IMG/VR virus record: IMGVR_UViG_3300023246_000155
Span: 1 to 41,679 of that record
Origin: a virus
Taxonomy: Duplodnaviria; Caudoviricetes
DNA: 41,679 nt
Direction: 5' to 3' (one strand)
The first letter of the stretch is position 1. Each line of letters begins with the position of its first letter. Both the position numbers and the translations under genes were made by a program. The notes below the pieces were generated by a model. The model was given only the letters and a program-made list of their open reading frames with translations, was not told the origin of the DNA and made no database searches. Of the stretch, positions 6,372 to 38,376 are shown in pieces.

Positions 6372-6875
6372 CTATTTACGTAATGCCTTACTTATTTTTT
6401 CTCTTGTTTTCTTAGAATGTTTAAATCCAGTCTTTAAATCGGTATTTGTTCTAGCTTCTAATCCTAGTTTTTTAAATCTATCATATATTGCTGATTTTGA
6501 TTTAAAACCAAAAAAGTCTGCTATTTTTTTATAATCCCACTTCTTTTCATAATATAAATTTTTCATTAATTCCAAATCAATTTCTATTTTATTAGCCCCG
6601 GGTATTCCATGAAGTTTCAAATGTGCCTTCTGTGTCATTAACATAAGATTTTCTATTCTGTTGTCTGAAGGATTGTTGTTTAAATGATGCAATATTAAGC
6701 CTTTTTGTATTTTTCCAAATTTCTTCTCCCACAAGTATCTATGTTCTAAATATTTTTTACCTTTAATCTCTATGCACCTATAACCATCTTTATTGATAGT
6801 TCCACCCTTATAATTATGTGGTCGTTTTCCATACATTATATTTTCTTTTCCGGGTTTGAATTTCATAAACAACAT
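6372..6875 (-). CDS. Free-standing HNH homing endonuclease with HTH and NUMOD3-like tail
   Basis: EHRYLWE..LHHLNNNPSDNRIENL HNH motif; C-terminal HSKKTREKISKA. Confidence 0.85.
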   Translation of the reverse strand: MLFMKFKPGKENIMYGKRPHNYKGGTINKDGYRCIEIKGKKYLEHRYLWEKKFGKIQKGLILHHLNNNPSDNRIENLMLMTQKAHLKLHGIPGANKIEIDLELMKNLYYEKKWDYKKIADFFGFKSKSAIYDRFKKLGLEARTNTDLKTGFKHSKKTREKISKALRK

Positions 6876-6906: not shown

Positions 6907-9900
6907 TTATTCAGAACTGATACTATCTTCTTCTTTTTCTAAAAACAGCAAAACAGAACGGCATCTGGGATGTGAGGGAGGACTTTGTCCAGACCAATCC
7001 TTATAATGAAAGTCTTCGTCTAGTCCGACTATCTGACCATCTAAATGCTTACAAATATCTGAGGTTCTGTCATCATGTGCGCTCAACCATTGTTTTTTCA
7101 TATCCAATCCAGAACCCTTCATTGCTAGTAGTTTTCCTTGATTTTCTGCTCTTCCGACTTCTGTTATAGCTATAATTTCGGCCCGATTATCTCCTACGTT
7201 GAATACTTTTGTCACTCTTGCTTTTAGCTTTGTTACCCCTTCCCCGTTGATTATTCCTCTGCCTAATTCGGCTTTTAGGTTGTTTGCTATTTCTTCTGTC
7301 ATTCCCTTTACATTATCGAACGTGTGGTCTTGTAAAAACTGAACTGCATTGTTATTCATTGGGATATTCTTGTCTATTTGCTTCTCTGAGGTGTCCCATC
7401 CAAATTGAAAGTTTACTTTGATGACTTCGTCTACTACCTTTCTAAATGTGAAAATCTCAAATATCTTCTTAATGATTCTTGGCAAATCGTCTATTCCCTT
7501 AATCTGTAGTAATTGTTCAGGCTTGCCTTGTTCTTCTAGTAATTCGAACACCTTCTTTTTATTGACCTTTAGGAGGTCTGTGATGTTCTTCTTTAGCTTC
7601 TTCTCGGATGGACTTAGTTCTTCTCCTGGTCCTAGTGTGTTTGGTGAGTCTGAGGTTGATGCCTTCTTGACATCCTTTGGCTTATCTCCTTTAGCCGGCT
7701 TGCCTGTCATCTTGTCACGATTGTTTGCGCTATCCCTATTGATTTTGTCTGCGTCCTGTTGTCGGGGATCCCCTACGTTTATGTTCGTTCCCTGATTTGG
7801 ACTTCTCTCTCCAACATTCTTGTCACCCCATTCTACATCATCTAATCCTTCTGCGTTACGCACTTCGTTGATTGTCTTAAGGTCTGATTCGGTCTGCAAC
7901 TTGTATAATCCCCACTTCTTTGTTTCTTCGTCTATGTCAAATATCTTGTATTTGTATCTTACACCTTCAACTCCAAACTCCGGGATGATTTCCGTGTTGA
8001 CGTGGTATTCGATTAATCTTAGTAAAGGGTAGATGATTCGTTTCTTTGCTACGCTTGTCTGTACGATTTGGTTTGCGGATCCTTTTGCATCTTCTGTGTT
8101 ATAATGAATACCTACCTTTCCATTTCTACAAGTAATGAATGGTCTGTTTCTTACGCTTGGACACCACATTGTTCCAGTATATTTTTCATTAAATCTTTGA
8201 GTAGATATAACAACTCTTGGTTCTTTTTGCGAAATATTAACATTAAGTTCATAGGTTTTATTCCATTTTGGGTTATCAAATTCTCTTTCGTAAATAGAAG
8301 CCTTATATCCTAATTTTAAACATATTTCAAACACATCCTCAATTAATCTCTTACTACTGGATGAATAATTAAATGAATCTTCCCCTTCCCTTCTTGAACC
8401 ATCTCCAGATACCAAGGCATCTAATAATATTCTTAATTGTGGCTTTGGTAAATTCTTTATTTCTTGTGGAATATGCTTTTCTAAGCTTCCACCAAATCTA
8501 CTCAAATAAAGGGCTAGAGATTTATTATTAAGTGTCCAGCAAACCTTTTCTCTTCTGAATCCCATTTTTTCAGCTAATGGTTTCATAATTTTAATACCCT
8601 CTGGTTTTACTTGTGCTATTTTAACATGAAATTGTTTTCTTTCTCTCATCTTCTTTAATACAGAACCTTCAGACAAATAATAACCTAAAAATTCACACCA
8701 TTCATCTATATTAAAAGTTGTTTGTTGATATCTTCCCTTATCTTTATTGTTTTCATATTCTACTAAGGGTATGTTGATTTCATCTAAATATTCCCCTTCC
8801 CACCCCAGTCCTCCTTGTAGAAATTTAACCGTATCCACATCTATTTCATTCGAGGGACTACATTTATATTCTTCTTTTTTAGGAGTCCTATAATACATTC
8901 TGTGATTATCGCTAACTAGAACATCTACACAATTATTTTTATAAAAATGAAAGTTTCTATCTTTAACGTCAAATGTATGAATTTTATCTGGTTTTATATA
9001 TTCTATTTCTTTTTGATTTATTATGGTGGCAATTTTATCATCTTCTTTAATTTCCCAATAATATTTGAGTCCGTTGTCTGTTAAAACCTGTGTATCATCT
9101 GAATAACAAAATCCTAGTTCTGTGGCTGTAATCCCGAAGGCTCCCCACACTAGCTTTGACCACCACTTCTGGCTTTCGATAAGTTCTAGCTCCTGGTTTG
9201 TGAATCCTAATCTCTCGAACTTTGGCATCTTGTTAACCATTGGGAGTTTGTGATTCGCTCTCTTCCAGTTACCCAGATCGTCCTGCACCTTTTGCTGCTG
9301 AATCCACTGTTGTCCGAACGCTGTCAAATCCTCACTACTCATCCCTTCTAATCCCAAGACTCCTGGAGGGATTGAGTTGTCGTTGAAATATTCGAGTTGA
9401 CTCTCCACTGCGTAGATTAATGTCTGAACCGTCTTTGCCAAAACTTCCATACTGCTTCGGCCATATAAATTGTCGGTCCTAACTTTCTTCTCAAACCACA
9501 CTACCTCTCGCCTTCCGAATGGGATTGGTCTGGCGCCTGTGTTGAATCCGTATTGGAAGTACGCGCCCTCTTCATGCGCATCCTCAGCCGTCATCTCTGC
9601 TTGGATTGCCGGATATTCCATTGTTTGGGTTTGCTCTTCTCCTTCCCCAAGAATGTTCTTCATTAAAATTAAGTCTGCCCTAGTCGTGTAAAATCCATAA
9701 GGATCGGGATTCTTTGTGAATGCCATTCCATCCCTTGCGCAAATCTCAACCATCTCTCCAAACATGTTAAAAATCTTCACCATGACTCCGGAGTTAAGTT
9801 CTAGTAAATCTGGCAACATCATTCTCACAATCATTTCCCATGACTCTTTGTTTGTGTTTGGGTTCTCGAAGAAGTCCTGCAATCTCTCAACATCTGCATC

Positions 9901-10290
9901 CTTTCCTGGTACTTCGTTTCCTGCTCGGTCCTCTGCTACGATTTCATATTGAATCGAACACACCTCATCGATGATTGCTGTCACACACATATCCACATAA
10001 ATTGAGGCTGCTAGTTGTCTGTAATAATTAAGGTCTTTATATCTTGGATATCCGAATGGTGCTCGGTAGAAAAAGTTTGGAATGTATGCTTTGGGTTGGC
10101 CGTCTCTCGTCTCTTCGTAAACGGTCACTGCATTGCTTCTAGTTGGTTTTGGGTTGCCGGTTGCTTTGTTGTATGGTCCTATTGATTGTCTTGTGTGCTG
10201 ATTTGCTTGCTGGCCGAATGGTTGTAGAACTGATTTACTACCCGTTTCCCAAGGGCAGTTTGAAAATATTGAGGCTGATTTTCTTTCCAT
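6907..10290 (-). CDS. Portal protein fused to MuF/SPP1 gp7 head-morphogenesis domain, containing an intein
   Basis: Portal motifs (YGRSSME, YFNDNSIPPGVL, TINEVRNAEGL); C-terminal WLSAHDDRTSDIC..PPSHPRCRS MuF motif. Confidence 0.9.
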   Translation of the reverse strand: MERKSASIFSNCPWETGSKSVLQPFGQQANQHTRQSIGPYNKATGNPKPTRSNAVTVYEETRDGQPKAYIPNFFYRAPFGYPRYKDLNYYRQLAASIYVDMCVTAIIDEVCSIQYEIVAEDRAGNEVPGKDADVERLQDFFENPNTNKESWEMIVRMMLPDLLELNSGVMVKIFNMFGEMVEICARDGMAFTKNPDPYGFYTTRADLILMKNILGEGEEQTQTMEYPAIQAEMTAEDAHEEGAYFQYGFNTGARPIPFGRREVVWFEKKVRTDNLYGRSSMEVLAKTVQTLIYAVESQLEYFNDNSIPPGVLGLEGMSSEDLTAFGQQWIQQQKVQDDLGNWKRANHKLPMVNKMPKFERLGFTNQELELIESQKWWSKLVWGAFGITATELGFCYSDDTQVLTDNGLKYYWEIKEDDKIATIINQKEIEYIKPDKIHTFDVKDRNFHFYKNNCVDVLVSDNHRMYYRTPKKEEYKCSPSNEIDVDTVKFLQGGLGWEGEYLDEINIPLVEYENNKDKGRYQQTTFNIDEWCEFLGYYLSEGSVLKKMRERKQFHVKIAQVKPEGIKIMKPLAEKMGFRREKVCWTLNNKSLALYLSRFGGSLEKHIPQEIKNLPKPQLRILLDALVSGDGSRREGEDSFNYSSSSKRLIEDVFEICLKLGYKASIYEREFDNPKWNKTYELNVNISQKEPRVVISTQRFNEKYTGTMWCPSVRNRPFITCRNGKVGIHYNTEDAKGSANQIVQTSVAKKRIIYPLLRLIEYHVNTEIIPEFGVEGVRYKYKIFDIDEETKKWGLYKLQTESDLKTINEVRNAEGLDDVEWGDKNVGERSPNQGTNINVGDPRQQDADKINRDSANNRDKMTGKPAKGDKPKDVKKASTSDSPNTLGPGEELSPSEKKLKKNITDLLKVNKKKVFELLEEQGKPEQLLQIKGIDDLPRIIKKIFEIFTFRKVVDEVIKVNFQFGWDTSEKQIDKNIPMNNNAVQFLQDHTFDNVKGMTEEIANNLKAELGRGIINGEGVTKLKARVTKVFNVGDNRAEIIAITEVGRAENQGKLLAMKGSGLDMKKQWLSAHDDRTSDICKHLDGQIVGLDEDFHYKDWSGQSPPSHPRCRSVLLFLEKEEDSISSE
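8098..9108 (-). mobile_element. Portal intein (337 aa) with in-frame LAGLIDADG endonuclease
   Basis: ELGF|CYSDDTQVLTDNG ... FLGYYLSEG ... LLDALVSGDG ... CRNGKVGIHYN|TED. Confidence 0.9.
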
Positions 10291-10391: not shown

Positions 10392-13300
10392 CTATTCTAC
10401 GAGAATCCTCCCATTAACCATTCGAACTTCTTTGCCATCGACTACCTTTGTTGTTATGCCTCCTTCTCCAAAAACTTTTAATTTGTTATTTTCCTCGATG
10501 GTGTCAATTGGATCCGTAAAAACCCACGCCGATTCGTTTGGGTTAATCTCAAAATACATTCTCATCATTAAGCAATTAGAAACAAGAATATCATTAGCAT
10601 AATAACAATGGTCTTTTTGAACCTTTAAATCATAAACGTCTATTTCCCCACATAAGCTTAGCAGCACAACTTCTTGAACAGCATTTGGTTGAGTCTTGTT
10701 TTTTGACGCTGAATTCTTTTCCGCAGTATAAACAATTTCTTCTTTCAAAATATCTTTTTTCTTTATACTTTGCGTTTTGAAAACATTTGTTTGAGCAATA
10801 TTTACCGCATTGGTGTACACTTTTGTCAATAAATTCTTTTTTACAGAATTCACATATTTTTTTAATGTTTTTGATATTTTGTTTTGCATGAATCCTTTGA
10901 TGTTCCGATGATTCAATGATTGTAAGATTCTTTGGATTATTATTGAAATGGTTTCCGTCAATATGGTGAACCGAGTATCCTTTAGGGATTGGTCTTCCTG
11001 TTGAATCCTCATAAACTCTTCTATGCAATGCTTCGATTTTTCCATTTCTTTTCTTGTAATAATATCTTCCACTGGATAAAAGCCTGTATCTTTCTCCTTT
11101 GTAAATAATCTCTTTATTCTCCATTTTAATAAATTTTTTGTGTTTAATATCTCTCCTTTGTACTCTCTCATCTTAAGGGCTTTAACCTTTTTAAAACTAT
11201 CATTTAGATAAATCTTGTGATTTGGTGTGCAATAAATTTCCTTACCATTATTAAATTTTATTTTTACAATTTGCTTTGATTTCTTCCTTTTTACTTCTAA
11301 AACTTTCCTGCTTCCATATGGAGTTATTACCTTTTCTCCAATATTAATATCCTTAATGAATTTATATCCATTTGTGGTTAATACGTTGGTATTTCCTACC
11401 AGACAATCACCTGCATCCGTTGACCTGCTAAGTGCGGCCGAGTCATGAAGCTCTTTCTTTGTTATCACTCTCATCTTCGCATCTTTGTCTGAGTCCATTT
11501 GCTTCATGACTTCTAAATCCTCAATAATTAATTCTTTGATGTTGATTGGCAGCTCCCTATAAATTCCAATCATCCCAGAGTTAACATGGTTTGCTAATTC
11601 GAACCAACACTGGCTTCTTAGGTTCTTGTAATTGTCCAGCCCCTCATCATCCGTGCTTTGCTTCTTTTTCTTTAGTGGCGCCGCGTTTGCTACGAATCCG
11701 ATAATCTCCGGCATTTCTTTCTTCAATCCGAACCCCACCCCAATCTCATCCACTAGGCAATGGCTTCTTGGGATTGTTCTGCTTGTTAGTATCTCATCCA
11801 ACTCACTACTCGACAGCCCTTCTGAAAATTGTAAAAGCTCAGTAATAAATAACCCATCCCAAATCGACACCATGCAACTATCCCTTCCGAATCCTGACTG
11901 GTCCACTATGCAATACTTCTTTCCTCGCTTGGCCTCATTTGTGAATAAATCAACGATTGAGTCGTAGTTGAATATCTTTGTTGGATCATCATCATACTCC
12001 CAATTCCCATTCAACAATCTCTCCCGGTTCTTTTTGTCTAGCTTCTTCAAATTCTCGATATAATGCACTGAGATAAATGGGTTGTCGTAAACACTCGCCG
12101 GCACGTATGCTTTGAAGGGTTCGAGTTCGTTGTCTCGCCACTTCTTATAAAAATCTCTATAAATAAAAGTCTTACAAGGATTGCTCCCCATCCCAATCTT
12201 TGGGATTAATCCGAACTCATCCAACTTGAACCTCATACGACTTCGAATGATTTGGTACGCCTGTTCAGTAATGTCACCCATCTCATCAATAAAGCCGTCA
12301 GTATACTCGGTCGAACCAAGACTTACAAACTCAGGGTCACTTGGATATAAAAATAAGTCCTTAAGATATTCTTCGCTTCCATTCGAGAAGGTGATATAAG
12401 ATGCCTGAGCATTGTAATTATAGTCTATACCCATTTGTAACCCCATTTTACTCGCAACTTCAAAAAATGTCAAGAGTGTTGATGCTTTCAAATCTTTAAG
12501 ACGTGCTCTCGCGAGAAATCCTCTGGAACCTTTATACTTCAATCTTCGTTTAATTTGCCAATAACATCCTGTAAAACTTTTCGAGTTGTGAATAATTATC
12601 CCATTAGCCAAAACATAGGATTCGTTCTCTGTTTCAATATCATACATTGGTTCATTTTGCCAATAAAATCTAATCTCTAAAATATCATTTAAATTTATTT
12701 CACATGCTTCCAACTTTTTCTTATTATAATGTCCTTTATACAACTTGGTTTTACTCCGTACTCCACTGCCAACTTCTTTCTCCCGTATTTCCTCGGGATG
12801 AATTTCTCCCTTATCTCTTTTACCTGTTGCTCGGTTAGTTTGCTCATTCCGTTCTGACTCCCTGGCTTCCTTTGAAGATTTGCTCGATTCCCTACATTCT
12901 CCATAAATGGGTTCATTCTTCCTAGTTTCTCCGCATGATGGAAGTTCTCCTTTCCAGTCATCCATTCTAGATTTTCTATTTGATTGTTTCGTTTGTTGAG
13001 ATCTTTGTGATTTACTTCTGGTTTGCTTTCCGGATTCGGAATAAATGTTTTGGCTACTAATCTGTGAATTTGTACGCCTTCCTTTCCTGTATTTAAAACA
13101 ATAGTTGTTCTCAAGTAACCCTTCTTTGTTATCCCGGGGTTCATTATCATAATCTTTCCAGAATTTTTCCAATTGATTGTCTTTAATCTCCCTTTGTTGC
13201 TTATCAAATACCGACCATTCGTTTCTTTTACTTCTACCCAATACTCCTCTGGCAAGTTCTCCAATCTCAACCCATTCTCCATCAAATAAGAATTTATGCG

Positions 13301-13613
13301 CTTGTGTGAAGTTGATTTTTGTTCCATCTTTTAATTTTAACTCTATACATCCAACGGAACCACCATTTATAAAAGTTTCTAACACTGGCTTATATTCCAG
13401 AATATTCTTTTTCTTATTAAAAGTAAGCACAATTTCACCTTTTTTAATATCTTTTAGAAACCTTTCCCCTAGGGTAGTGGTGGTTCTGACCTTAGTTACA
13501 CCAACTCCGCAACCACCGGCTGCGCCACCCATAAAGATTTCTGTGTGTTCATCATCATCTAGAGTATTAAGGATCTCACTTTGCTTTTGGCTTAAGGTTA
13601 TTTTTCTTATCAT
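10392..13613 (-). CDS. terL: Terminase large subunit with two inteins
   Basis: Walker A GGAAGG|SKS restored after removing intein 1; Walker B FIDE; GSNP motif; nuclease acidic residues IVDQSGFGRDS and STDAGD|CL. Confidence 0.93.
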   Translation of the reverse strand: MIRKITLSQKQSEILNTLDDDEHTEIFMGGAAGGCGVGVTKVRTTTTLGERFLKDIKKGEIVLTFNKKKNILEYKPVLETFINGGSVGCIELKLKDGTKINFTQAHKFLFDGEWVEIGELARGVLGRSKRNEWSVFDKQQREIKDNQLEKFWKDYDNEPRDNKEGLLENNYCFKYRKGRRTNSQISSQNIYSESGKQTRSKSQRSQQTKQSNRKSRMDDWKGELPSCGETRKNEPIYGECRESSKSSKEARESERNEQTNRATGKRDKGEIHPEEIREKEVGSGVRSKTKLYKGHYNKKKLEACEINLNDILEIRFYWQNEPMYDIETENESYVLANGIIIHNSKSFTGCYWQIKRRLKYKGSRGFLARARLKDLKASTLLTFFEVASKMGLQMGIDYNYNAQASYITFSNGSEEYLKDLFLYPSDPEFVSLGSTEYTDGFIDEMGDITEQAYQIIRSRMRFKLDEFGLIPKIGMGSNPCKTFIYRDFYKKWRDNELEPFKAYVPASVYDNPFISVHYIENLKKLDKKNRERLLNGNWEYDDDPTKIFNYDSIVDLFTNEAKRGKKYCIVDQSGFGRDSCMVSIWDGLFITELLQFSEGLSSSELDEILTSRTIPRSHCLVDEIGVGFGLKKEMPEIIGFVANAAPLKKKKQSTDDEGLDNYKNLRSQCWFELANHVNSGMIGIYRELPINIKELIIEDLEVMKQMDSDKDAKMRVITKKELHDSAALSRSTDAGDCLVGNTNVLTTNGYKFIKDINIGEKVITPYGSRKVLEVKRKKSKQIVKIKFNNGKEIYCTPNHKIYLNDSFKKVKALKMREYKGEILNTKNLLKWRIKRLFTKEKDTGFYPVEDIITRKEMEKSKHCIEEFMRIQQEDQSLKDTRFTILTETISIIIQRILQSLNHRNIKGFMQNKISKTLKKYVNSVKKNLLTKVYTNAVNIAQTNVFKTQSIKKKDILKEEIVYTAEKNSASKNKTQPNAVQEVVLLSLCGEIDVYDLKVQKDHCYYANDILVSNCLMMRMYFEINPNESAWVFTDPIDTIEENNKLKVFGEGGITTKVVDGKEVRMVNGRILVE
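10575..11405 (-). mobile_element. TerL intein 2 (277 aa) in the nuclease domain
   Basis: AGD|CLVGNTNVLTTNG, block B CTPNHKI, C-terminal VYDLKVQKDHCYYANDILVSN|C. Confidence 0.9.
10630..11124 (-). CDS. HNH endonuclease with Zn-ribbon repeats, nested in the -1 frame inside TerL intein 2
   Basis: ALHRRVYE..VHHIDGNHFNNNPKNL plus CxxC..CSxxC repeats; entirely within the intein coordinates. Confidence 0.85.
   Translation of the reverse strand: MENKEIIYKGERYRLLSSGRYYYKKRNGKIEALHRRVYEDSTGRPIPKGYSVHHIDGNHFNNNPKNLTIIESSEHQRIHAKQNIKNIKKICEFCKKEFIDKSVHQCGKYCSNKCFQNAKYKEKRYFERRNCLYCGKEFSVKKQDSTKCCSRSCAAKLMWGNRRL
12695..13327 (-). CDS. NUMOD4-HNH endonuclease with C-terminal HTH, nested in the +1 frame inside TerL intein 1
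   Basis: EYWVEV..YLISNKGRLK NUMOD4; IHRLVAKTFIPNP..VNHKDLNKRNNQIENLEW HNH; alternative start ATG at 13282. Confidence 0.88.
   Translation of the reverse strand: MEQKSTSHKRINSYLMENGLRLENLPEEYWVEVKETNGRYLISNKGRLKTINWKNSGKIMIMNPGITKKGYLRTTIVLNTGKEGVQIHRLVAKTFIPNPESKPEVNHKDLNKRNNQIENLEWMTGKENFHHAEKLGRMNPFMENVGNRANLQRKPGSQNGMSKLTEQQVKEIREKFIPRKYGRKKLAVEYGVKPSCIKDIIIRKSWKHVK
13366..13380 (-). promoter_or_regulatory. Candidate internal BRE/TATA promoter for the nested HNH
   Basis: AGAAACTTTTATAAA about 40 nt upstream of ATG 13327; resembles intergenic promoters at 6887 and 27381. Confidence 0.4.
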
Positions 13614-15933: not shown

Positions 15934-16353
15934 TTACCTCCATTTTTTTTTGTTTAATTTTCCTGAAAATGTATCTGTAGTTTTATGACACTCTTTACAG
16001 AGTGTTCTTCCATTATCTATAGCAAATCTTAATTCTGGGAATAAGGCGAATGGTTTGATGTGGTCTGCATTTAAGTTTCCACCTCTTTGCCCACAAAATC
16101 TACAAGTCCAATTATCTCTTTTAAATACCGCTTCTCTCCATAATCTATATTCCATAGAATTTCTTATTTTTATATTTTTAGAAGATATTCCACCTTTCCA
16201 ATTCCAATGTTTATTCCCGCTTTGTAATTTGTGTCCTTTTTTAAAGCCATTTTCAATACTCTTAGGATTGTATCCTTTATGTTTATAACTCTCCTTCCTC
16301 TTAAGTGATCGTTCTTTCTCTTTCTCTTTTCTATGATATTTTGCGTAGGGCAT
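15934..16353 (-). CDS. HNH endonuclease
   Basis: WREAVFKRDNWTCRFC..ADHIKP..NGRTLCKECH; GGAGGTGA RBS before MPYAKY. Confidence 0.85.
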   Translation of the reverse strand: MPYAKYHRKEKEKERSLKRKESYKHKGYNPKSIENGFKKGHKLQSGNKHWNWKGGISSKNIKIRNSMEYRLWREAVFKRDNWTCRFCGQRGGNLNADHIKPFALFPELRFAIDNGRTLCKECHKTTDTFSGKLNKKKWR

Positions 16354-16726
16354 TTTCACCTCCCTTCTCAGTTTCTTCAATTTTACTAAACTCGCAGCAT
16401 TCCTGTGGACTCCTTGTTAAATTAACAGCCGTCAACTCTATATCACTCAAGACTCCATTTTTGTTGTTATGATAATTTTTCTTAATCTCCTTTAAAAGTT
16501 TGATCTGCGATTTGCCATAGTCTGTAAGTGTGATAACAATTTCCTTCCCGCGCTTTCCATCTCCTTCGGTTTTGTTGACTATGTTTGATCTTGCCCACCT
16601 GGATATTAATGTTGATGCAGCACTCAACGCCAAATCACAACGTTTTGCTAACTCAGAAATATTCCTAGGCTTTTTTGAAATCTCAATTAAGAAATTCATA
16701 TTTTTTTGATTAATTATCTCCAACAT
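16331..16726 (-). CDS. Winged-helix transcriptional regulator (ArsR/MarR-like)
   Basis: PRNISELAKRCDLALSAASTLISRW..IVITLTDYG wHTH pattern. Confidence 0.7.
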   Translation of the reverse strand: MLEIINQKNMNFLIEISKKPRNISELAKRCDLALSAASTLISRWARSNIVNKTEGDGKRGKEIVITLTDYGKSQIKLLKEIKKNYHNNKNGVLSDIELTAVNLTRSPQECCEFSKIEETEKGGENALRKIS

Positions 16727-29032: not shown

Positions 29033-31380
29033 TCACAATTAATACAATAACCTTCTATCTCAAGCGATGGCTGAAGTATTCTTTGGTCTGATGCATTGCA
29101 ATTTTCGAAGTCTGCCCAGAACCAAATTTGTGTATTATTTAGATATTCTACATTTGAGTTGATTGTCTGCCATGTCGTGTTGATCACGTTCGATTCATTC
29201 TTTGTTGCATTGTTGCTCCAGGTAAGATTCAAACACTCAAAATCTTCATTAAGTTTAATCGACAAATTCATATCTCCTCCGTAGTTTGTCGTTGTTATAT
29301 TGTAAGCTGGTATTGTTGTTGTTTGGCCATAGGCAGTCACGTTCTTCGAGCTATTTGTTTTTGGAATAAAAAATAATTTGCTCGCCCATGTATATGGGAG
29401 ATTCTTAAAAAAACTAGAATAATAAGCAAACACACTCAACGTTTCATTATTTGATTTATTTGTATACAAAATATCCCAAATCATTGATTCTTCATATACA
29501 TATTGAGCATTTACCCCAGTAGCATCTCTTAATAAAATATAATCTGTACCATTCCAACAACCCCATTTTGTATATCCCAAATAACTACTATTAATTCTAA
29601 ATTGTAAAGGATTTTGATTAAAACATTGTTGTGCAATAGTTAAATTCTCACTCCCAATTTTATCTTTTACTTGCCATAAACTCGAATTCAGTGCTCCATA
29701 AGGTTTGGTATAATTAAAAAATACAAATGATGTTGATGATGATTGAGCAGAACCAAAAGTTCCCCAATTTCCATCATAAATATTTTCAGCAGATGTCCAA
29801 GCTCCTGAAATTAAATAAGCTCCTGTTCCTAATCCACCACAGTCAGTTGAAATATTAGCTGTTTCTTGATAACAATCTATATCACTATGTTCATAAACTA
29901 AAACCTCAATTGTATCATTTCCTCCTAAATAATCATACCTAATATCAGAAATAACCAAAGTTCCATTTTTAGAAGATTGAAATTTTATTGGAATATCTCC
30001 GTAATTAGTTTGACTTTCTAAAAAGGAATTAATTAAATCTTTATCAAGATAAACAGGATTTGGGTCATAAGAATAATTTACTTCAATATCCGAAATCTGT
30101 ATTTTCCCGGCAGTATCACTTATAAAATATAAAGGGACCAAACAATATCCATCTGAATCTAACGCACAAGTAGATAAGAAAGTATTAATTGAACTATTAA
30201 AATTACTTGTTTTATTTGGAGAGAATGTTTCATTAAATTCCCCTGTGTGATTCCATTCATAAGTTCCGTCTACAATTCCTACTTCTAAACTAATATTATT
30301 GAGATATCTTTCATCTAAATAAATATACATTCCAGCGGAATCTACACTCGTTTTATAGTAGGTTACTCCATTCATATATTGAAGCCAAAAACATGAAGTT
30401 GATTTGAATTGAACAGTATAATCTAATTCTGAATTAAAAAAAGTATCAGAGATTGTCTCATTGGCTATTTGCTGGGTACCTCCTGTTGTTGGTGTGAAAG
30501 TGTTCCAATCAATAATTACATTATCTCCTTCTTTTATGATATATAAAGCTTCTGTACTTCCACAATCATCACCCCCTCTAGTAAAGAATCCTATTTTTGA
30601 ACTCCATCCACTTGCAGTTGGTTTAAAGTTAAACACATGCCAAGTAGGATTCCCAGGTCCTATTTGATAAAAATTGCTTCCAGGGAAATTTGCCTTATAA
30701 CCATAATCATACGTAAAACCACTTAAATTCATATATGCAGAAGAAACCGAAGCAGTTTTTGGAATTTTTAAATACTCAATATTTGTTTCAGCTTTATCAA
30801 AAGTTATATTCTTGATTGTAGAACCATCATTTAATTCATCAAGGGCAATCTCTCCATCAAAAACCAATCCAACATTATTACTTAAAGTATTATTTACATA
30901 TATTTTAACATTTGTGGGATATGTTCCATTTGAAATATAACCAGAAACATTAATCGAAACATTTTCTATCTCGTCATAATGATGTCCCTTAATATAAACC
31001 GTATCATTTCCACCATTCACCCAACTAATATTTTTAGAAGTAGAACTGTCATTTAATTCTGTTTTTCTAAAATAAGAAATATTGAGAGTAAAATTTGCGT
31101 TTGGGGTTCCACATGTGTAGTTGTCTCCATAGTTTGGGTGGTCGATATCCACACACGTTGTTGTCGCGCCGGTTAGATTTGTTGTGAAGTTTATTGGGGT
31201 TCCAAGTTCTACCGAAATATTTCCGCTTACTAGATTTGTTGCGGTGTCGTTTACTCCATACCAAAAAGGATCTCCCAAACAAAATCCAGAAGAAGGATTA
31301 ATAACCAATCCTTCAAAAATATATATCCCAGAACAAATAATTAAAATCATCCAAGAATAAAATAAAACTTCCTTTAACAT
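29023..31380 (-). CDS. Large membrane-anchored or secreted sequon-rich protein
   Basis: Likely start MLKEVLF with AGGAG RBS; N-terminal hydrophobic helix; about 40 N-x-S/T sequons by hand count. Confidence 0.7.
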   Translation of the reverse strand: MLKEVLFYSWMILIICSGIYIFEGLVINPSSGFCLGDPFWYGVNDTATNLVSGNISVELGTPINFTTNLTGATTTCVDIDHPNYGDNYTCGTPNANFTLNISYFRKTELNDSSTSKNISWVNGGNDTVYIKGHHYDEIENVSINVSGYISNGTYPTNVKIYVNNTLSNNVGLVFDGEIALDELNDGSTIKNITFDKAETNIEYLKIPKTASVSSAYMNLSGFTYDYGYKANFPGSNFYQIGPGNPTWHVFNFKPTASGWSSKIGFFTRGGDDCGSTEALYIIKEGDNVIIDWNTFTPTTGGTQQIANETISDTFFNSELDYTVQFKSTSCFWLQYMNGVTYYKTSVDSAGMYIYLDERYLNNISLEVGIVDGTYEWNHTGEFNETFSPNKTSNFNSSINTFLSTCALDSDGYCLVPLYFISDTAGKIQISDIEVNYSYDPNPVYLDKDLINSFLESQTNYGDIPIKFQSSKNGTLVISDIRYDYLGGNDTIEVLVYEHSDIDCYQETANISTDCGGLGTGAYLISGAWTSAENIYDGNWGTFGSAQSSSTSFVFFNYTKPYGALNSSLWQVKDKIGSENLTIAQQCFNQNPLQFRINSSYLGYTKWGCWNGTDYILLRDATGVNAQYVYEESMIWDILYTNKSNNETLSVFAYYSSFFKNLPYTWASKLFFIPKTNSSKNVTAYGQTTTIPAYNITTTNYGGDMNLSIKLNEDFECLNLTWSNNATKNESNVINTTWQTINSNVEYLNNTQIWFWADFENCNASDQRILQPSLEIEGYCINCEWI

Positions 31381-31910
31381 TTTCCACTTCTCCTTTTTAT
31401 AAAATAATTTTCCCATTTCTCTTTTGTATAATTTGTTTTGGCATGACATGAAACACACAAACAAATTAAATTATCTGGTTTACTGTTGTTTTTATCATAA
31501 TCTATATGATGAATACTTAATCTTCTTTTTGATTCTTTCTCATGCTTAAAACACTCTTGACATCTAAAATTATCTCTTTTTCTTATATTTTTTTTCAATT
31601 CTTTATTAAAATCCTTTCCATAGGGTTCCAATGATTTCCAATTATCAAAATATTTATGTAATTCTCCTTTTTGAAATTTTGTATTTATCTTATCCCAAAT
31701 TTCCCTACATGAATGTTTTTTATTTTTAGACATTAAACAATTACAAATTGGACATTTAAGTGTTCTATCATAAACTTGTTTAGATATTCTTTTTCTTTTT
31801 TCCAAATCTTTAAAAAATCCATTCTTTTGTCTTGTTTTTGTTCTCCTATCTATTTCTTCTTTACTTTTTTTCCTTCCAACATTTATCTTACTTCCTTTCT
31901 GAAATCTCAC
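31374..31910 (-). CDS. HNH endonuclease
   Basis: IRKRDNFRCQEC..IHHIDYDKNNSKPDNLICLCVSCH; probable GTG start overlapping the upstream TGA, with GAGGT RBS. Confidence 0.85.
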   Translation of the reverse strand: MRFQKGSKINVGRKKSKEEIDRRTKTRQKNGFFKDLEKRKRISKQVYDRTLKCPICNCLMSKNKKHSCREIWDKINTKFQKGELHKYFDNWKSLEPYGKDFNKELKKNIRKRDNFRCQECFKHEKESKRRLSIHHIDYDKNNSKPDNLICLCVSCHAKTNYTKEKWENYFIKRRSGKC

Positions 31911-32413
31911 TTTAATACCTCGTTGTTTATTTCCATTCCCCAAACTATTGTTTCGTCCGGGTTACTCTTAAGCCCAACAAGCATATAATCTTGGCAACTA
32001 TATCTCGCAAATCTGTGAACATAAATTCTATCTTTTCTTGGCTTTGTTGCATTTGTGAAGTTCTCATATCTCCATCCTGCTGTTGATGCCCGTATTCCCT
32101 TGTCATATAAAAATTGTTTCTTGACTCTTCCATCTTTAAAAAAAATCCAATAATCAGGGATCCCTGGTGAGAAGTCCATCTTAAATTCCTCTGGGTTATA
32201 AATATCATAATTGTCTGGTCCTAAGTTACAAATCTTACCATACGAAACACAAGGATCGTCTGGAGTTCCAAGACACACATCATCGCTTCCAGTTATCTCA
32301 AACCCCATCGCCATCAAAACAAAAAATAAAGAAGTCACTGTGATAATCGCACCACCTGCTATCTTTGCGTACTTACTTGATTCTCTTCTTAAGTAAATTC
32401 TTCTATTTCCCAT
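31907..32413 (-). CDS. Membrane-anchored protein (probable N-terminal part of a gene split by the HNH)
   Basis: Start MGNRRIY (TAATG coupling); TM IAGGAIITVTSLFFVLMAMGF; ends WGMEINNEVLK at the HNH start. Confidence 0.65.
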   Translation of the reverse strand: MGNRRIYLRRESSKYAKIAGGAIITVTSLFFVLMAMGFEITGSDDVCLGTPDDPCVSYGKICNLGPDNYDIYNPEEFKMDFSPGIPDYWIFFKDGRVKKQFLYDKGIRASTAGWRYENFTNATKPRKDRIYVHRFARYSCQDYMLVGLKSNPDETIVWGMEINNEVLK

Positions 32414-32844
32414 TATGTGTTTGTACTTGATTGCACAAGCTTTAAGTTCCATCTCAATTTTGTTGGTTCTGCCTCAGTATATGTTGAACTAAAACTTAAA
32501 ACTTTAACCCATAGCCCTCCTCTTATGTCATCATTAAAATATAATGGGTACCCCGAATCATTGTCCTGATGACCTTGTTGAAGGTTCTCTACATCTGCAA
32601 TCCACCCAACAATATTTGCCTTTGATTCATTCAGATATACCCCTGTTAGAGTTATTGTTTTTGTAACTCCTCCATAATCGAATACATCGGTACCATCCGC
32701 ATCGGATAAATAAAGAGGCATGATTGCAAGACTAGAATCTTTACTACAATCATTATCAGTAATAGTAGCATTCCCATCACCATGAAGTGTAACATATTCA
32801 GTATACTCTCCATCGCCTAGAAATCCTAATGTTGTATTTCCCAT
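32413..32844 (-). CDS. Distal tail protein (Dit-like)
   Basis: Immediately after the tape measure; GGVTKTITLTG..WNLKLVQ pattern. Confidence 0.55.
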   Translation of the reverse strand: MGNTTLGFLGDGEYTEYVTLHGDGNATITDNDCSKDSSLAIMPLYLSDADGTDVFDYGGVTKTITLTGVYLNESKANIVGWIADVENLQQGHQDNDSGYPLYFNDDIRGGLWVKVLSFSSTYTEAEPTKLRWNLKLVQSSTNT

Positions 32845-34079
32845 TATGCTATCCCTCGAGATTTTAATTCCATCATTGTAATATTCGAGAATCTTCTCGC
32901 AAGTTCATCCGGATCAATATTCGAAGAGTTCCCGTTCATTTGAATTGTTGGCTTTAGAATAATACTGCTTGAGCTGTTGCTATTATTATTAACTCTTGGA
33001 ATCACGCTTTCTCCCCTATGCAATTTGTACATTCCTGTTTGCCCTACAAACGCTGTTCCTGTTTGATGTCCTTCAACATCATCATCATCATCCCCTTTCC
33101 AGATTGATTTTACTTTCTTCCATAACCATGCACCGAAGTTCCAATGCCAGCTCCAGATTGATTTTACTTTTCCCCAGAGCCATCCTCCAAAGTCGGCCAC
33201 ATAATTCCAAACTGCTTTCATCTTTCCCCACAACCAAGAGCCGAAGTCCATTGTGTAATTCCAAACCGATATCAACACGCCCCATAACCAACTTCCGAAA
33301 TCCATCACATAATTCCAAACTGTCTTCAATTTATCCCAGAGCCATCCTCCAAAATCCCAATACCAACTCCAAACTGATTTCAATTTATCCCATAACCATC
33401 CGGCGAAGTCTGCTGTCCAATTCCAAATTTTCTTAATGTTATCCCACAACCATCCTCCAAATTGTTTCATCTTATTGTATACTGCTCCCCAGTCAATTTG
33501 TGCTAGTAATGCAAGGCCTGCTCCAATTAAAGCTCCGGCTGCTGCTCCGATTGGTCCTCCTAATGCACCGATCGCCGCGCCGGCCAAAGCTCCGCCTCCT
33601 GCGCCCAACGCAGTTCCAACCACCTTCTTCCCGATTCCTGTTCTAGAAAATTTTAGCCATGAGACTGCTGCTTTCATTAACATGATTGCTAGTGGTCGAA
33701 GTAACCCTGCCAAAAAATCTCCAAATGGCCTAAAAAATATTAAAAATGCTCTTCCAAAAACTGACAAAACTCCTCTAAGATATCCGCTTGACTTCTTCAT
33801 TAATCCCAAGGCTGTTCCAGCGATTGCCGCTATTATTCCTAACTTTGCAACGGTTGCACCCATCCCTTTTGATAATCCCATAAACCCTGATCCTGCTGAA
33901 CCTCCGCCTCCGCCTCCACCTGCACTTGCTGAGGATTTGGAACCCCCAAAACCCGCAGATTTTAAGGACTTATTTAGAGACGCCGCTATCTTGTCGCCAA
34001 TCTGCTTGCCGACTTTGTCTCCTTCTCTTCCACCTTTAACGGTGATTGGAACCTTGATTTCCATGGTGCTCTCTGCCAT
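32844..34079 (-). CDS. Short tape measure protein
   Basis: Follows the frameshifted chaperone; Gly/Ala hydrophobic segments, 18-aa Trp-rich repeats, C-terminal HQTGTAFV..LHRGESVIP. Confidence 0.85.
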   Translation of the reverse strand: MAESTMEIKVPITVKGGREGDKVGKQIGDKIAASLNKSLKSAGFGGSKSSASAGGGGGGGSAGSGFMGLSKGMGATVAKLGIIAAIAGTALGLMKKSSGYLRGVLSVFGRAFLIFFRPFGDFLAGLLRPLAIMLMKAAVSWLKFSRTGIGKKVVGTALGAGGGALAGAAIGALGGPIGAAAGALIGAGLALLAQIDWGAVYNKMKQFGGWLWDNIKKIWNWTADFAGWLWDKLKSVWSWYWDFGGWLWDKLKTVWNYVMDFGSWLWGVLISVWNYTMDFGSWLWGKMKAVWNYVADFGGWLWGKVKSIWSWHWNFGAWLWKKVKSIWKGDDDDDVEGHQTGTAFVGQTGMYKLHRGESVIPRVNNNSNSSSSIILKPTIQMNGNSSNIDPDELARRFSNITMMELKSRGIA

Positions 34080-34286
34080 CAATCCTTCATCTCGGCCCCA
34101 ACCTTCTTTTTATATTCCATTTCCATTTCCCTCATATAACACATTCTGTCGTAAGGTAGCGCGTCTACCTGACTCGGGGTGTAATTAAACCGATTAGCGA
34201 AAAACCAATAAATAAATTCTTGTGAAATCTCTGGATCGTCTAGGTAGTGTCCGGAGATGCTTTCTCTGATTTTAAATTTTTTTTTT
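34079..34286 (-). CDS. -1 frameshift extension of tail assembly chaperone (gpGT-like)
   Basis: A10 run at 34286-34277; -1 frame reads KKFKIRESISGHYLDDPEISQEFIYWFFANRFNYTPSQVDALPYDRMC...MKD to a TGA overlapping the tape-measure ATG. Confidence 0.8.
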
Positions 34287-35657: not shown

Positions 35658-36215
35658 TTAGTTTTTTTTACCTCCCGTGTTATTTAATTTTAGTTTGATT
35701 CCTAATCCTCGTTTCCCAATGTTTTCATCTAGTAAAATATGACAGGGTTTACAATAAGTTATTCCATTTCCTATATCCCATAATTCCTTACATTTTCTTG
35801 CCTGTTCGGATGTAGTTATGTTAAATAGTTTTAATAGTTTTGAAAATGCGATTATATGGTGTGCTTCCAAATATCCTTTTTTTCCACAATGTTGACAATG
35901 ATAATTATCACGTTTGAAAACATCTGCTCTCCATTCTAAATATTCTCTCATCATCATAATTCTTCCCCTTAATTCTCTCTTAAATCCAGTAAATTTTTTA
36001 TCTCCAGTCTGTTCTAAACTTTTATTTATTCTAGATTCCATGCTCCAAGTATGACATTCCTTATGATAATTTGCATGACCTTCTTGGAATCCTGATTTCT
36101 TATTATAATTTCCAGTTTTAACTTTGTAACCTTTCTTTCCCTTGTTCCATGGGATGCATCCCTTTTTGAATTGTGTTTCTGGATTTGCACTCTGTCCTTT
36201 CTCAAATTGTGCCAT
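35658..36215 (-). CDS. HNH endonuclease
   Basis: FKKGCIPWNKG N-terminal motif; WRADVFKRDNYHCQHC..EAHH..NGITYCKPCH. Confidence 0.85.
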   Translation of the reverse strand: MAQFEKGQSANPETQFKKGCIPWNKGKKGYKVKTGNYNKKSGFQEGHANYHKECHTWSMESRINKSLEQTGDKKFTGFKRELRGRIMMMREYLEWRADVFKRDNYHCQHCGKKGYLEAHHIIAFSKLLKLFNITTSEQARKCKELWDIGNGITYCKPCHILLDENIGKRGLGIKLKLNNTGGKKN

Positions 36216-37132: not shown

Positions 37133-37927
37133 CTAATTCGCGAATTGTTTTGTTATCTCTTCTTGGATAATTCCTGCTAGTTTGTTTCGAATCGTGTTTC
37201 TTATGAATGGGTTTGGTCTTGTTCCTGGATGTTTAACAACCTTAGCGAACACCTTGCCATTTCCTACTTTGAATTTGAGTGCCTTCTTGTCTTTTGGCTT
37301 GATTATATGTGGTGGCGTGTTATGTGTGAATATACCGTTAGCAAAGAACGTATCTTCTCCTTCTAATGTTAAATTATAAATTGTTGATTTATTCATCAAA
37401 ATAGTTTCAATATCAATTATTTCTTCTGTTATAAATTCTTCGAATTGTTTCTTTGTGTTTTTTCCATATCCATATTTTTTATGAAATTCTTTATGATGTT
37501 TTTCACATAAGGCAACTCCATTCTTAACATCATATCTTTCTTTTGGAAATTTATCAAATCCATTAAGATGATGGGATTCTATTTTTTTAATCCCACAAAT
37601 AACACAAAATTTATCACGTTTTTTTACTGCTCTAACCCAAACTTTTTCTTCCTTATTTTTTCTTGGATTTGTTATTCCTCCATTCCAATTGTGATTTTTT
37701 TTCCCAGTCTGAGATAATCCTTGCTTTGTTCTTGTTTCTTTAGATAACTTCCAATGCTTTCCTTTAGAATAATCATGTCTAGAATATTTATGATAGCATT
37801 CCTGTGAACAAAATTTGGCAGTATCTTTTCTTGATGGGCTAACAAAAAACTTTTTCCCGCATTTACATTCTATTTTTATTTCTGTTATAATACCCTTATT
37901 CCAAGGTGTTCCCCCAGCCCTTACCAT
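37133..37927 (-). CDS. HNH endonuclease - intein C-half - gp10 C-extein
   Basis: VKKRDKFCVIC..ESHH..NGVALCEKHH HNH; IYNLTLEGEDTFFANGIFTHN|TPPHII..HPGTRPNPF. Confidence 0.88.
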   Translation of the reverse strand: MVRAGGTPWNKGIITEIKIECKCGKKFFVSPSRKDTAKFCSQECYHKYSRHDYSKGKHWKLSKETRTKQGLSQTGKKNHNWNGGITNPRKNKEEKVWVRAVKKRDKFCVICGIKKIESHHLNGFDKFPKERYDVKNGVALCEKHHKEFHKKYGYGKNTKKQFEEFITEEIIDIETILMNKSTIYNLTLEGEDTFFANGIFTHNTPPHIIKPKDKKALKFKVGNGKVFAKVVKHPGTRPNPFIRNTIRNKLAGIIQEEITKQFAN

Positions 37928-38193
37928 ATTTTTTTTATCCTATCTCTGACTTTTAATTTATGAGCTTTCTTCCATCCTTTACTTGTCCAGATGGGATGGT
38001 CCTCTGTGATTTCTAATTTCTTATTTTTGGTTTTCATAATAATCTTTTTTATTGGATACCCAATCTCCATTTTTTCTTTTTGGATTAATTTTTTGTATTC
38101 TTTTCCAGTCCATATTAATTCCCCTATTTTCAAATCTTTTAATTTTTTGTTTCCTTTCTTAGTTTTAATAGGAATAGTGTCTTTAAAAAAGCA
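37319..38193 (-). mobile_element. Frame-broken (split or frameshift-dependent) HNH intein in the gp10 gene
   Basis: IntN starts at C (38193) and stops at 37921; IntC ends HN at 37319 in the -1 frame. Confidence 0.85.
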
Positions 38194-38376
38194 TCCAAAC
38201 TCCACATAAAAAGCATAATCGACTATTGAGATTGTTAGTGTCATCCCGTCTGATGTGACCCTGATTGAATTTCTTAATCTCCCAGTATCTACTGGAGCTG
38301 CTATAATTAGTTCGTTCTGAATCCTTATTGCTATTCGTGGGATTGCTCTCCAAATCGCTTCTTCAATCTCATTCAT
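37921..38376 (-). CDS. HK97 gp10-like N-extein plus intein N-half
   Basis: APVDTGRLRNSI..YAFYVEFG|CFFKDTIPIKT..ITEDHPIWTSKGWKKA. Confidence 0.88.
   Translation of the reverse strand: MNEIEEAIWRAIPRIAIRIQNELIIAAPVDTGRLRNSIRVTSDGMTLTISIVDYAFYVEFGCFFKDTIPIKTKKGNKKLKDLKIGELIWTGKEYKKLIQKEKMEIGYPIKKIIMKTKNKKLEITEDHPIWTSKGWKKAHKLKVRDRIKKIW

Follow-up and report, generated by a model that had tools for sequence, protein, structure and literature searches.

A terminase intein that overlaps an HNH endonuclease gene in the -1 frame, with signs of homing, in a viral genome that carries a second intein of similar layout

Inteins whose nuclease is encoded in a reading frame other than that of the splicing domain have been described before. 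In brucellaphages, an intein-encoded HNH endonuclease with zinc-binding sites lies out of frame in terL (Tevdoradze et al., 2015, PMC4422536), and actinobacteriophage inteins with separate-frame nucleases were reported recently (Gosselin, Arsenault and Gogarten, bioRxiv 10.1101/2025.01.02.630785). For a cyanobacterial dnaX intein a frame-specific dN/dS analysis is available (Phillips, DeSimone and Gogarten, bioRxiv 10.64898/2026.09.14.751524), and the accessible text on the haloarchaeal MCM-d intein records a Pro-to-Ser co-conversion at the +1 residue (PMC10643990). The layout of an out-of-frame HNH gene in a phage intein is common in phages and already published, in the brucellaphage terL of 2015 and in preprints of 2025-26. 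A literature search, with most subscription journals and preprint supplements outside its reach, returned no paper on a family of such inteins at the terminase nuclease motif, none on a gene with two overprinted inteins, and none on this layout in a virus of DPANN type. What is modestly new here is that a single gene of a probable Pacearchaeota/Nanoarchaeota virus contains two overprinted inteins unrelated to each other, and that the record of homing is clean.

The locus lies in a viral record of 41,679 nucleotides (IMGVR_UViG_3300023246_000155), the whole of which is referred to as the window; all features of terL discussed below are on its minus strand. The terminase large subunit precursor (terL, 10392..13613, 1073 aa, with PHROG terminase matches) contains two inteins. 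Its exteins total 487 aa, and intein-free members of the same protein cluster have 481-490 aa. Intein 2 (10575..11405, 277 aa) is stop-free and of the class 1 type (C1...TPNH...VYDL...VSN), reading from C1 (LVGNT) to VSN|C. It has the class 1 residues C1, TPNH (the TxxH of block B), N277 and a +1 Cys; the penultimate residue is Ser rather than the usual His, and Ser is common in its family. The insertion site, RSTDAGD (11406..11426; RS[PT]DxxD is retained across homologs), is what we take to be the last acidic motif of the terminase nuclease domain, and the RSxDxxD motif is presumably catalytic. The first two C-extein codons (10569..10574) are TGC TTA, for Cys-Leu, in the window and GTG ATG, for Val-Met, in the empty allele L031. 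Intein-free homologs are colinear across the site (48 empty viral alleles; L031).

In the intein frame Pfam finds Hint families only (Intein_splicing, E = 2e-10, above the cut-off); the preliminary description had seen no motif in the intein-frame reading. TIGR01445 and TIGR01443 also match above their cut-offs. The Hint domain lies in two parts in the terL frame, blocks A and B and blocks F and G, the latter forming IntC (10575..10640, TIGR01443). An AlphaFold2 model from a 6-row alignment reaches a pLDDT of 71-88 over residues 1-80 and 241-277 and falls below 50 at residues 80-152 and 188-240, most of the linker; the two ends are modelled as a Hint domain whose best Foldseek matches are inteins, and the linker is without a known fold. 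Sequence and predicted fold are thus those of a class 1 intein, and splicing is predicted. A canonical bifunctional (maxi) intein would carry its nuclease between blocks B and F in the same frame, where no nuclease match is found, the HNH being in the -1 frame; a fractured gene or split intein would have its halves apart, whereas IntN and IntC are contiguous here. As to a self-splicing intron of group I or II, there is no Rfam match at gathering score in the window.

The nested endonuclease gene (10630..11124, 164 aa, MENKE...NRRL*) is offset by +2 (= -1) from terL; this ORF and the stop-free intein around it, both named in the preliminary description, are plainly there. Its ATG arises from Lys-Trp codons of the intein frame and its stop, TGA (10632-10630), from the Tyr-Asp codons of VYDL, so that the overlap, which had been said to reach almost to block F, in fact enters it. 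The gene product has an HNH_3 core (about 10894-11031; residues 32-77, Pfam E 4.5e-12) with the HH-x-D...N...H residues of I-HmuI-like HNH homing endonucleases, presumably catalytic, and two CxxC...CxxxC zinc-binding modules (about 10672-10854), which stand in the place of the NUMOD-type parts of I-HmuI. The protein is modelled with a mean pLDDT of 84.6 (8-row alignment), and I-HmuI (1u3e) is its best Foldseek match, a weak one (E 0.011, TM 0.33). The core residues are invariant in 66 nested members of the family, an invariance set in part by the search pattern; N66, H75, C91 and C94, outside that pattern, are kept in 66/66.

In the accessible text on the brucellaphages, the likeness to intein 2 consists of an out-of-frame HNH with zinc sites within a putative intein. 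That intein is mentioned only briefly; it occupies the mid-portion of terL and occurs in all compared genomes (PMC4422536), whereas intein 2 sits at the last nuclease motif, shares terL with a second such intein, and has empty alleles that point to homing. No Brucella phage is among the matches listed (40 of 56 tblastn rows for the nested HNH). The actinobacteriophage preprint, as far as its accessible portions go, shares with our case terminase hosts, an EndoVII-like nuclease in frame 3, which is the offset of intein 2, and a model in which a free-standing nuclease invades an intein; there, however, the HNH inteins are in frame, the out-of-frame nucleases are EndoVII-like and the antisense ones LAGLIDADG or VSR (10.1101/2025.01.02.630785).

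Openness of both frames exceeds what chance would give, because synonymous re-codings of the HNH almost never leave the intein frame stop-free. With the codon usage of all genes, re-coding produced a mean of 5.4 intein-frame stops, with zero stops in 9/20,000 cases; with that of the free HNH genes of the window the mean was 7.5 and none of 20,000 was stop-free. The five other HNH-bearing ORFs of the window have 9-29 stops per off-frame. In the diverged alleles L006, L007, L008 and L150-152, which differ from the window at 64, 82, 165 and 84 of 831 bases, respectively, both frames are intact and there are no indels. Relative to the window, dN/dS in the HNH frame is 0.14, 0.27, 0.33 and 0.17 in the same order (Fisher p <=1.5e-4), whereas over the overlap it is 1.66, 0.68, 1.17 and 1.02 in the intein frame, which is not significant; these values come from overlapping frames, are not statistically independent and serve as a guide. 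For IntN dN/dS is 0.07-0.18. The comparisons show the HNH frame to be under purifying selection, and the intein linker need only stay stop-free. Decay of HNH residues with conservation of the intein frame, which the preliminary description had proposed as a counter-indication, is the opposite of what is seen: the HNH is conserved and the linker drifts.

The second counter-indication proposed there, assembly indels that would restore an in-frame HNH, bears on the reading that the overlap is an assembly artefact or a decayed in-frame HNH intein, shifted out of frame by indels. In-frame HNH inteins do exist (L024 and L025; also in the accessible part of Gosselin et al., bioRxiv 10.1101/2025.01.02.630785). 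Against such an origin here, the four diverged alleles are free of indels, the identical 831 bases occur in several other assembled contigs, no indel is listed within intein 2 in the contigs of four public runs, and none of the 79 closest relatives (best 80 kept of at least 401) has the HNH fused in frame to the intein; moreover, over the full length of the HNH the intein frame has no stop, an outcome not to be expected from compensating errors. This reading is already refuted, with a residual probability that we regard as negligible, and the overlap of intein 2 and the HNH is real, conserved and dual-coding.

The dnaX intein resembles intein 2 in its overlapping-frame nuclease, its disordered linker, a nuclease dN/dS below 1, and a patchy distribution with co-existing empty and filled alleles; unlike it, its nuclease is a LAGLIDADG and its host gene cellular, according to the accessible text (10.64898/2026.09.14.751524). 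At our site, 48 of 61 viral terL relatives are empty, 8 are filled and 5 unscored, one of the last (L287) being the contig of the filled L008. Empty and filled alleles co-occur in the same runs (joints in X16, X20). In an extein tree the filled alleles are scattered, and the window and the empty L031 are sisters with a support of 1.0. An intein identical to that of the window (0/831 differences) is present in L003-L005 and L146-L149, although in these alleles the flanks depart from those of the window at 51-53/300 bases upstream (about 17%; for L149, 6 differences over the 26 bases compared) and, where counted, at 40/150 bases downstream. Conversely, L031 is without both inteins and differs at 5/1179 bases of the middle extein, three of them at junctions; two of the five are at -4 and -1 of the intein 2 site, and downstream of the site differences fall at +1, +2, +3, +4 and +6.

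The empty site had been given as STDAGD/CLMM in the preliminary description. This does not hold: empty alleles read STDAGD/V[LMW]MM, and Cys is at +1 in 0/48 viral ones (V in 19, A in 15, M in 6, S in 5, I in 2 and T in 1) and in none of the 67 empty alleles of 80 genome loci (13 unscored). By contrast, the +1 residue is Cys in 7/7 readable filled alleles, and Ser in L008. The near-identical empty L031 departs from the window mainly at bases -4 to +6, a stretch in which its Val codon gives way to that of the +1 Cys on which splicing would depend. Intein 2 most likely reached the present terL allele recently, by homing, and in the simplest reading of the alleles a short co-conversion tract at 10569..10574 would supply the +1 Cys nucleophile; among the local viruses a change from Val to Cys seems to be required. 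The identical inteins may also owe their spread to ordinary recombination of viruses that occur together, or to the help of another nuclease. The ShiLan element is alike in being a homing, stop-free insertion with an out-of-frame HNH and in having a +1 residue that differs between filled and empty alleles, but it is without a splicing domain and sits in a methylase, as far as the accessible text goes (Arsenault et al., 2025, PMC11855218).

Taken together, intein 2 has a complete nuclease ORF in another frame with the intein frame open, selection on the nuclease frame and signs of mobility, as expected where the homing endonuclease of an intein is read out of frame. We think it highly probable that terL harbors a two-gene mobile element, a predicted self-splicing intein and a -1 frame HNH likely to be translated separately and to drive homing. 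The 1073-aa precursor would splice via C1, TPNH, VYDL, the terminal Asn and the +1 Cys, while the linker would form a loop outside the Hint fold, and the HNH would be made from the ATG at 11124, probably via an internal TATA-type promoter near 11190. In a co-infected cell the HNH would nick or cut an intein-free terL near the RSTDAGD codons, and repair would copy the 831 bases in. A few flanking bases would be co-converted along with them, turning the +1 Val codon into Cys, a pattern that the alleles display and from which the process is deduced; the element would in this way bring its own splicing nucleophile. As to its origin, it is likely that in another lineage, long ago, a mini-intein was invaded by a free-standing HNH situated beside terL.

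Purifying selection on the HNH is compatible with any function, and the nested HNH might owe its maintenance to a benefit for the virus, either assisting terminase in DNA cleavage as a cofactor or killing competitors as a nuclease, and not to homing. A functional link between a nested HNH and terminase is raised in the accessible text of Tevdoradze et al. (PMC4422536), and free-standing relatives adjoin terL. However, the element is missing from 48/56 scored viral terL relatives, including the near-identical L031, and patchy spread together with identical copies in diverged hosts is a signature of homing. We consider a helper function improbable as the reason for its maintenance, and prefer the mobile two-gene element.

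Expression of the nested HNH probably starts at its own ATG. An ATG is the nearest start in 58/62 nested representatives outside the clade of the window, typically 3-21 codons before the first conserved Gly. A Shine-Dalgarno-like word is present at -18 to -4 in 27/62 nested members vs 29/196 control ATGs; within 18 bases of the ATG no such word is present in the allele of the window, where GGAG lies about 30 bases upstream. The TATA-like motif AGTTTTAAAAAGG (11186..11198), 72 bases upstream of the ATG, had been noted at 11198-11186 and is present as described; it is a candidate internal promoter, near 11190. TTTTAAAAAGG is retained in all 5 alleles, and similar motifs precede HNH1 and two of the window's free HNH genes by 21-46 bases, so that the distance is larger at the nested HNH than at these three; about 34 sites on the minus strand match the TATA-like pattern. 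Codons around the motif are less variable (8/21) than those upstream (22/35), which is suggestive, although recombination could explain it. A sigma-70 scan gave 10 sites vs 11.5 expected, with none before the HNH. No RNA run carrying the sequence is listed among 24 runs, which bears on expression in neither direction. An archaeal-type TATA motif fits the two best MAG matches for TerL, given below.

An A AAA AAT heptamer had been suggested to allow an IntN-HNH fusion by a -1 slip. The heptamer is indeed there and in phase (11139-11133), overlapping a second one, A AAT TTA (11136-11130; together 11130..11139), and in the window, L006, L007 and L008 the two precede the ATG by 15 and 12 bases. With the -1 frame open for 6-16 codons upstream, and in-phase heptamers elsewhere numbering 62 in 8048 codons, a programmed ribosomal slip could yield TerL(N)-IntN-HNH. 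Yet L150-152 are without both heptamers, have kept both frames and have gained GAGG before the ATG; of the other members nested at -1, only 4/60 show a heptamer in the open codons that lead up to the start, and in 37/62 members there are at most 5 such codons. No stimulatory structure is found downstream (z -0.19), and A-rich intein 2 itself holds six in-phase heptamers. The heptamers are probably incidental and the programmed slip very improbable, even more so than a helper function; translation from the ATG at 11124 is the reading that we retain.

Intein 1 (12585..13511, 309 aa, with Pfam/TIGR matches) is likewise stop-free and occupies a Walker A site, GGAAGG|S. Its nested NUMOD4-HNH_3 gene (12695..13327, 210 aa) is in the +1 frame; re-codings of this HNH were stop-free in 0/20,000 cases, and compared with L140 the HNH frame has a dN/dS of 0.11 as opposed to 1.09 for the intein frame, the pattern also seen in intein 2. 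Intein 1 too is patchy (window, L009, L039, L041, L140 and L141), with Ser or Ala at +1 of its empty sites, and in contigs it shows compensating single-base indel pairs. Independence of the two inteins, as claimed in the preliminary description, is borne out by the frame offset, by the best PHROG of the nucleases (15471 and 59) and by the Hint domains, 31% alike over 86 aa. The nested nucleases align weakly (14/43, E 0.099), their accessory domains are NUMOD4 plus a C-terminal HTH-like part in intein 1 vs four CxxC-type pairs in intein 2, and the inteins assort separately among alleles. The assertion that the HNH family also differs stands for offset, accessory domains and lineage, but the Pfam family is the same (HNH_3). 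That overprinting is a recurrent strategy and not an accident is supported; that it arose at least twice in this one gene is not, since intein 2 is one of a large family of mobile elements that occurs in many types of terminase, and arrived recently. Two separate origins of overprinting, both elsewhere, are likely, the elements having met in terL.

The wider family was sampled by scanning viral contigs (6/64 parts) with an 8-row HNH alignment and keeping the best 80 of at least 401 related stretches; one is the window's own sequence, and the 79 others were classified. Such sampling favors relatives of the nested HNH and is uninformative on inteins at large. Among these 79, 62 are wholly inside a longer open frame at the -1 offset and 1 more at +1 (63/79 nested). 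Pfam on 61/63 host ORFs (two near-duplicates omitted) gave a Hint-family match in 60 and a terminase match in 40 (E <=0.001), the host terminases being T4-like, SPP1-like and T7-like. Most insertions fall close to the nuclease domain's last acidic motif, no more than a few residues away, and their register varies (DNH|C, HDDA|C, SPD|C, AADE|C); the +1 residue is C in 57 and S in 8 family representatives, a result partly built into the boundary rule. Six of the 16 non-nested relatives have on one side an IntN closed by a stop and on the other an IntC of its own; 7 stand free next to a terL-like gene, and the remaining 3 are in neither setting. In L094, L098, L102, L110, L133 and L134 the HNH sits between IntN and IntC halves of terL, making these candidate new natural split inteins, and in all but one of the six a Met precedes block F in the IntC ORF. 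Their arrangement recalls the fractured genes of Dassa et al. (2009, PMC2677866), where, in the accessible text, the nucleases are GIY-YIG and Vsr-like; intein 2 of the window is contiguous. L022/L023:3712-4587 and L131 carry the same HNH family at +1 and group weakly on the HNH tree.

Among cultured phages, TJE1 and LS06-2018-MD07 have the nested gene, in both cases without annotation; in terL of Tetrasphaera phage TJE1 (L135:2133-3086), whose host is harmless, an unannotated intein, PDHI|C...VSN|CDA, contains a nested -1 HNH. Word-indexed protein searches with the HNH gave 2 matches at similar length and none at longer length, and are weak in this setting, since the profile-led DNA scan found hundreds. 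With intein 2 as phmmer query, many precursors match over all 277 residues; a genome scan with a single extein found nothing. In a quick tree of 79 HNH rows (omitting L106, L126, L127, L111 and three near-duplicates), 9/76 branches have strong support, and the free and the split members do not group apart from the nested ones but are interspersed with them (12 changes; minimum 3, shuffled mean 15.6), the order of events being unreadable from it. It is possible, and we propose it tentatively, as rather less likely than its alternatives taken together, that this HNH-zinc family colonized the last catalytic motif of nearly every terminase type, mostly in an overprinted form that escapes gene callers, and moves among three states (free beside terL, overprinted in a contiguous intein, between split halves), overprinted inteins being a common, or the main, precursor of terminase split inteins.

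The two best MAG matches of TerL are Ca. Pacearchaeota (72%) and Nanoarchaeota (56%), MAGs that may be mis-binned, and an integrase search for the host returned no taxa; a Pacearchaeota/Nanoarchaeota (DPANN-type) host is tentatively suggested by these matches. Elsewhere in the window, a probable naturally split intein interrupts a neck-type gene (HK97-gp10-like; 37133-38376, minus strand): IntN and a stop close the upstream ORF, and the next ORF, in the -1 frame, is an HNH-IntC-C-extein fusion (..FTHN|TPPH). The break is kept in L299 (61% identity), and an in-phase A AAA AAA just before it is present in the window and not in L299. A portal protein with a Mu gpF-like domain fusion (6907-10290, minus strand) has a canonical in-frame LAGLIDADG intein, absent in L005, L006 and L007. 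Four free-standing HNH genes lie at 6372-6875, 15934-16380, 31374-31943 and 35658-36215, all on the minus strand, two of them with a TTTTAAAA-type motif 21-30 bases before the ATG. A 250-aa ORF (33436-34188, plus strand) overlaps a 412-aa ORF (32844-34082, minus strand), and neither matches Pfam.

The contribution of this locus is breadth and a good test case and not a new principle. It offers a natural record of homing by a nuclease outside the intein protein, in which some alleles resemble donors, others resemble recipients, and the junction tract measures a few bases, and this makes expression, cleavage and co-conversion directly testable. It also exposes a large annotation gap: the exact nested HNH sequences of either intein are absent from a collection of 15 billion proteins in which the TerL precursor is present, and the TJE1 copy is unannotated. 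If the tentative picture of the family is right, split inteins would arise via a stop in an unselected linker and a start before block F, and the intein, by bringing in its own +1 Cys, would be able to move its register around the catalytic Asp. The present DPANN-type virus would then have overprinted -1, overprinted +1, split with HNH-IntC, and canonical LAGLIDADG architectures in a single genome.
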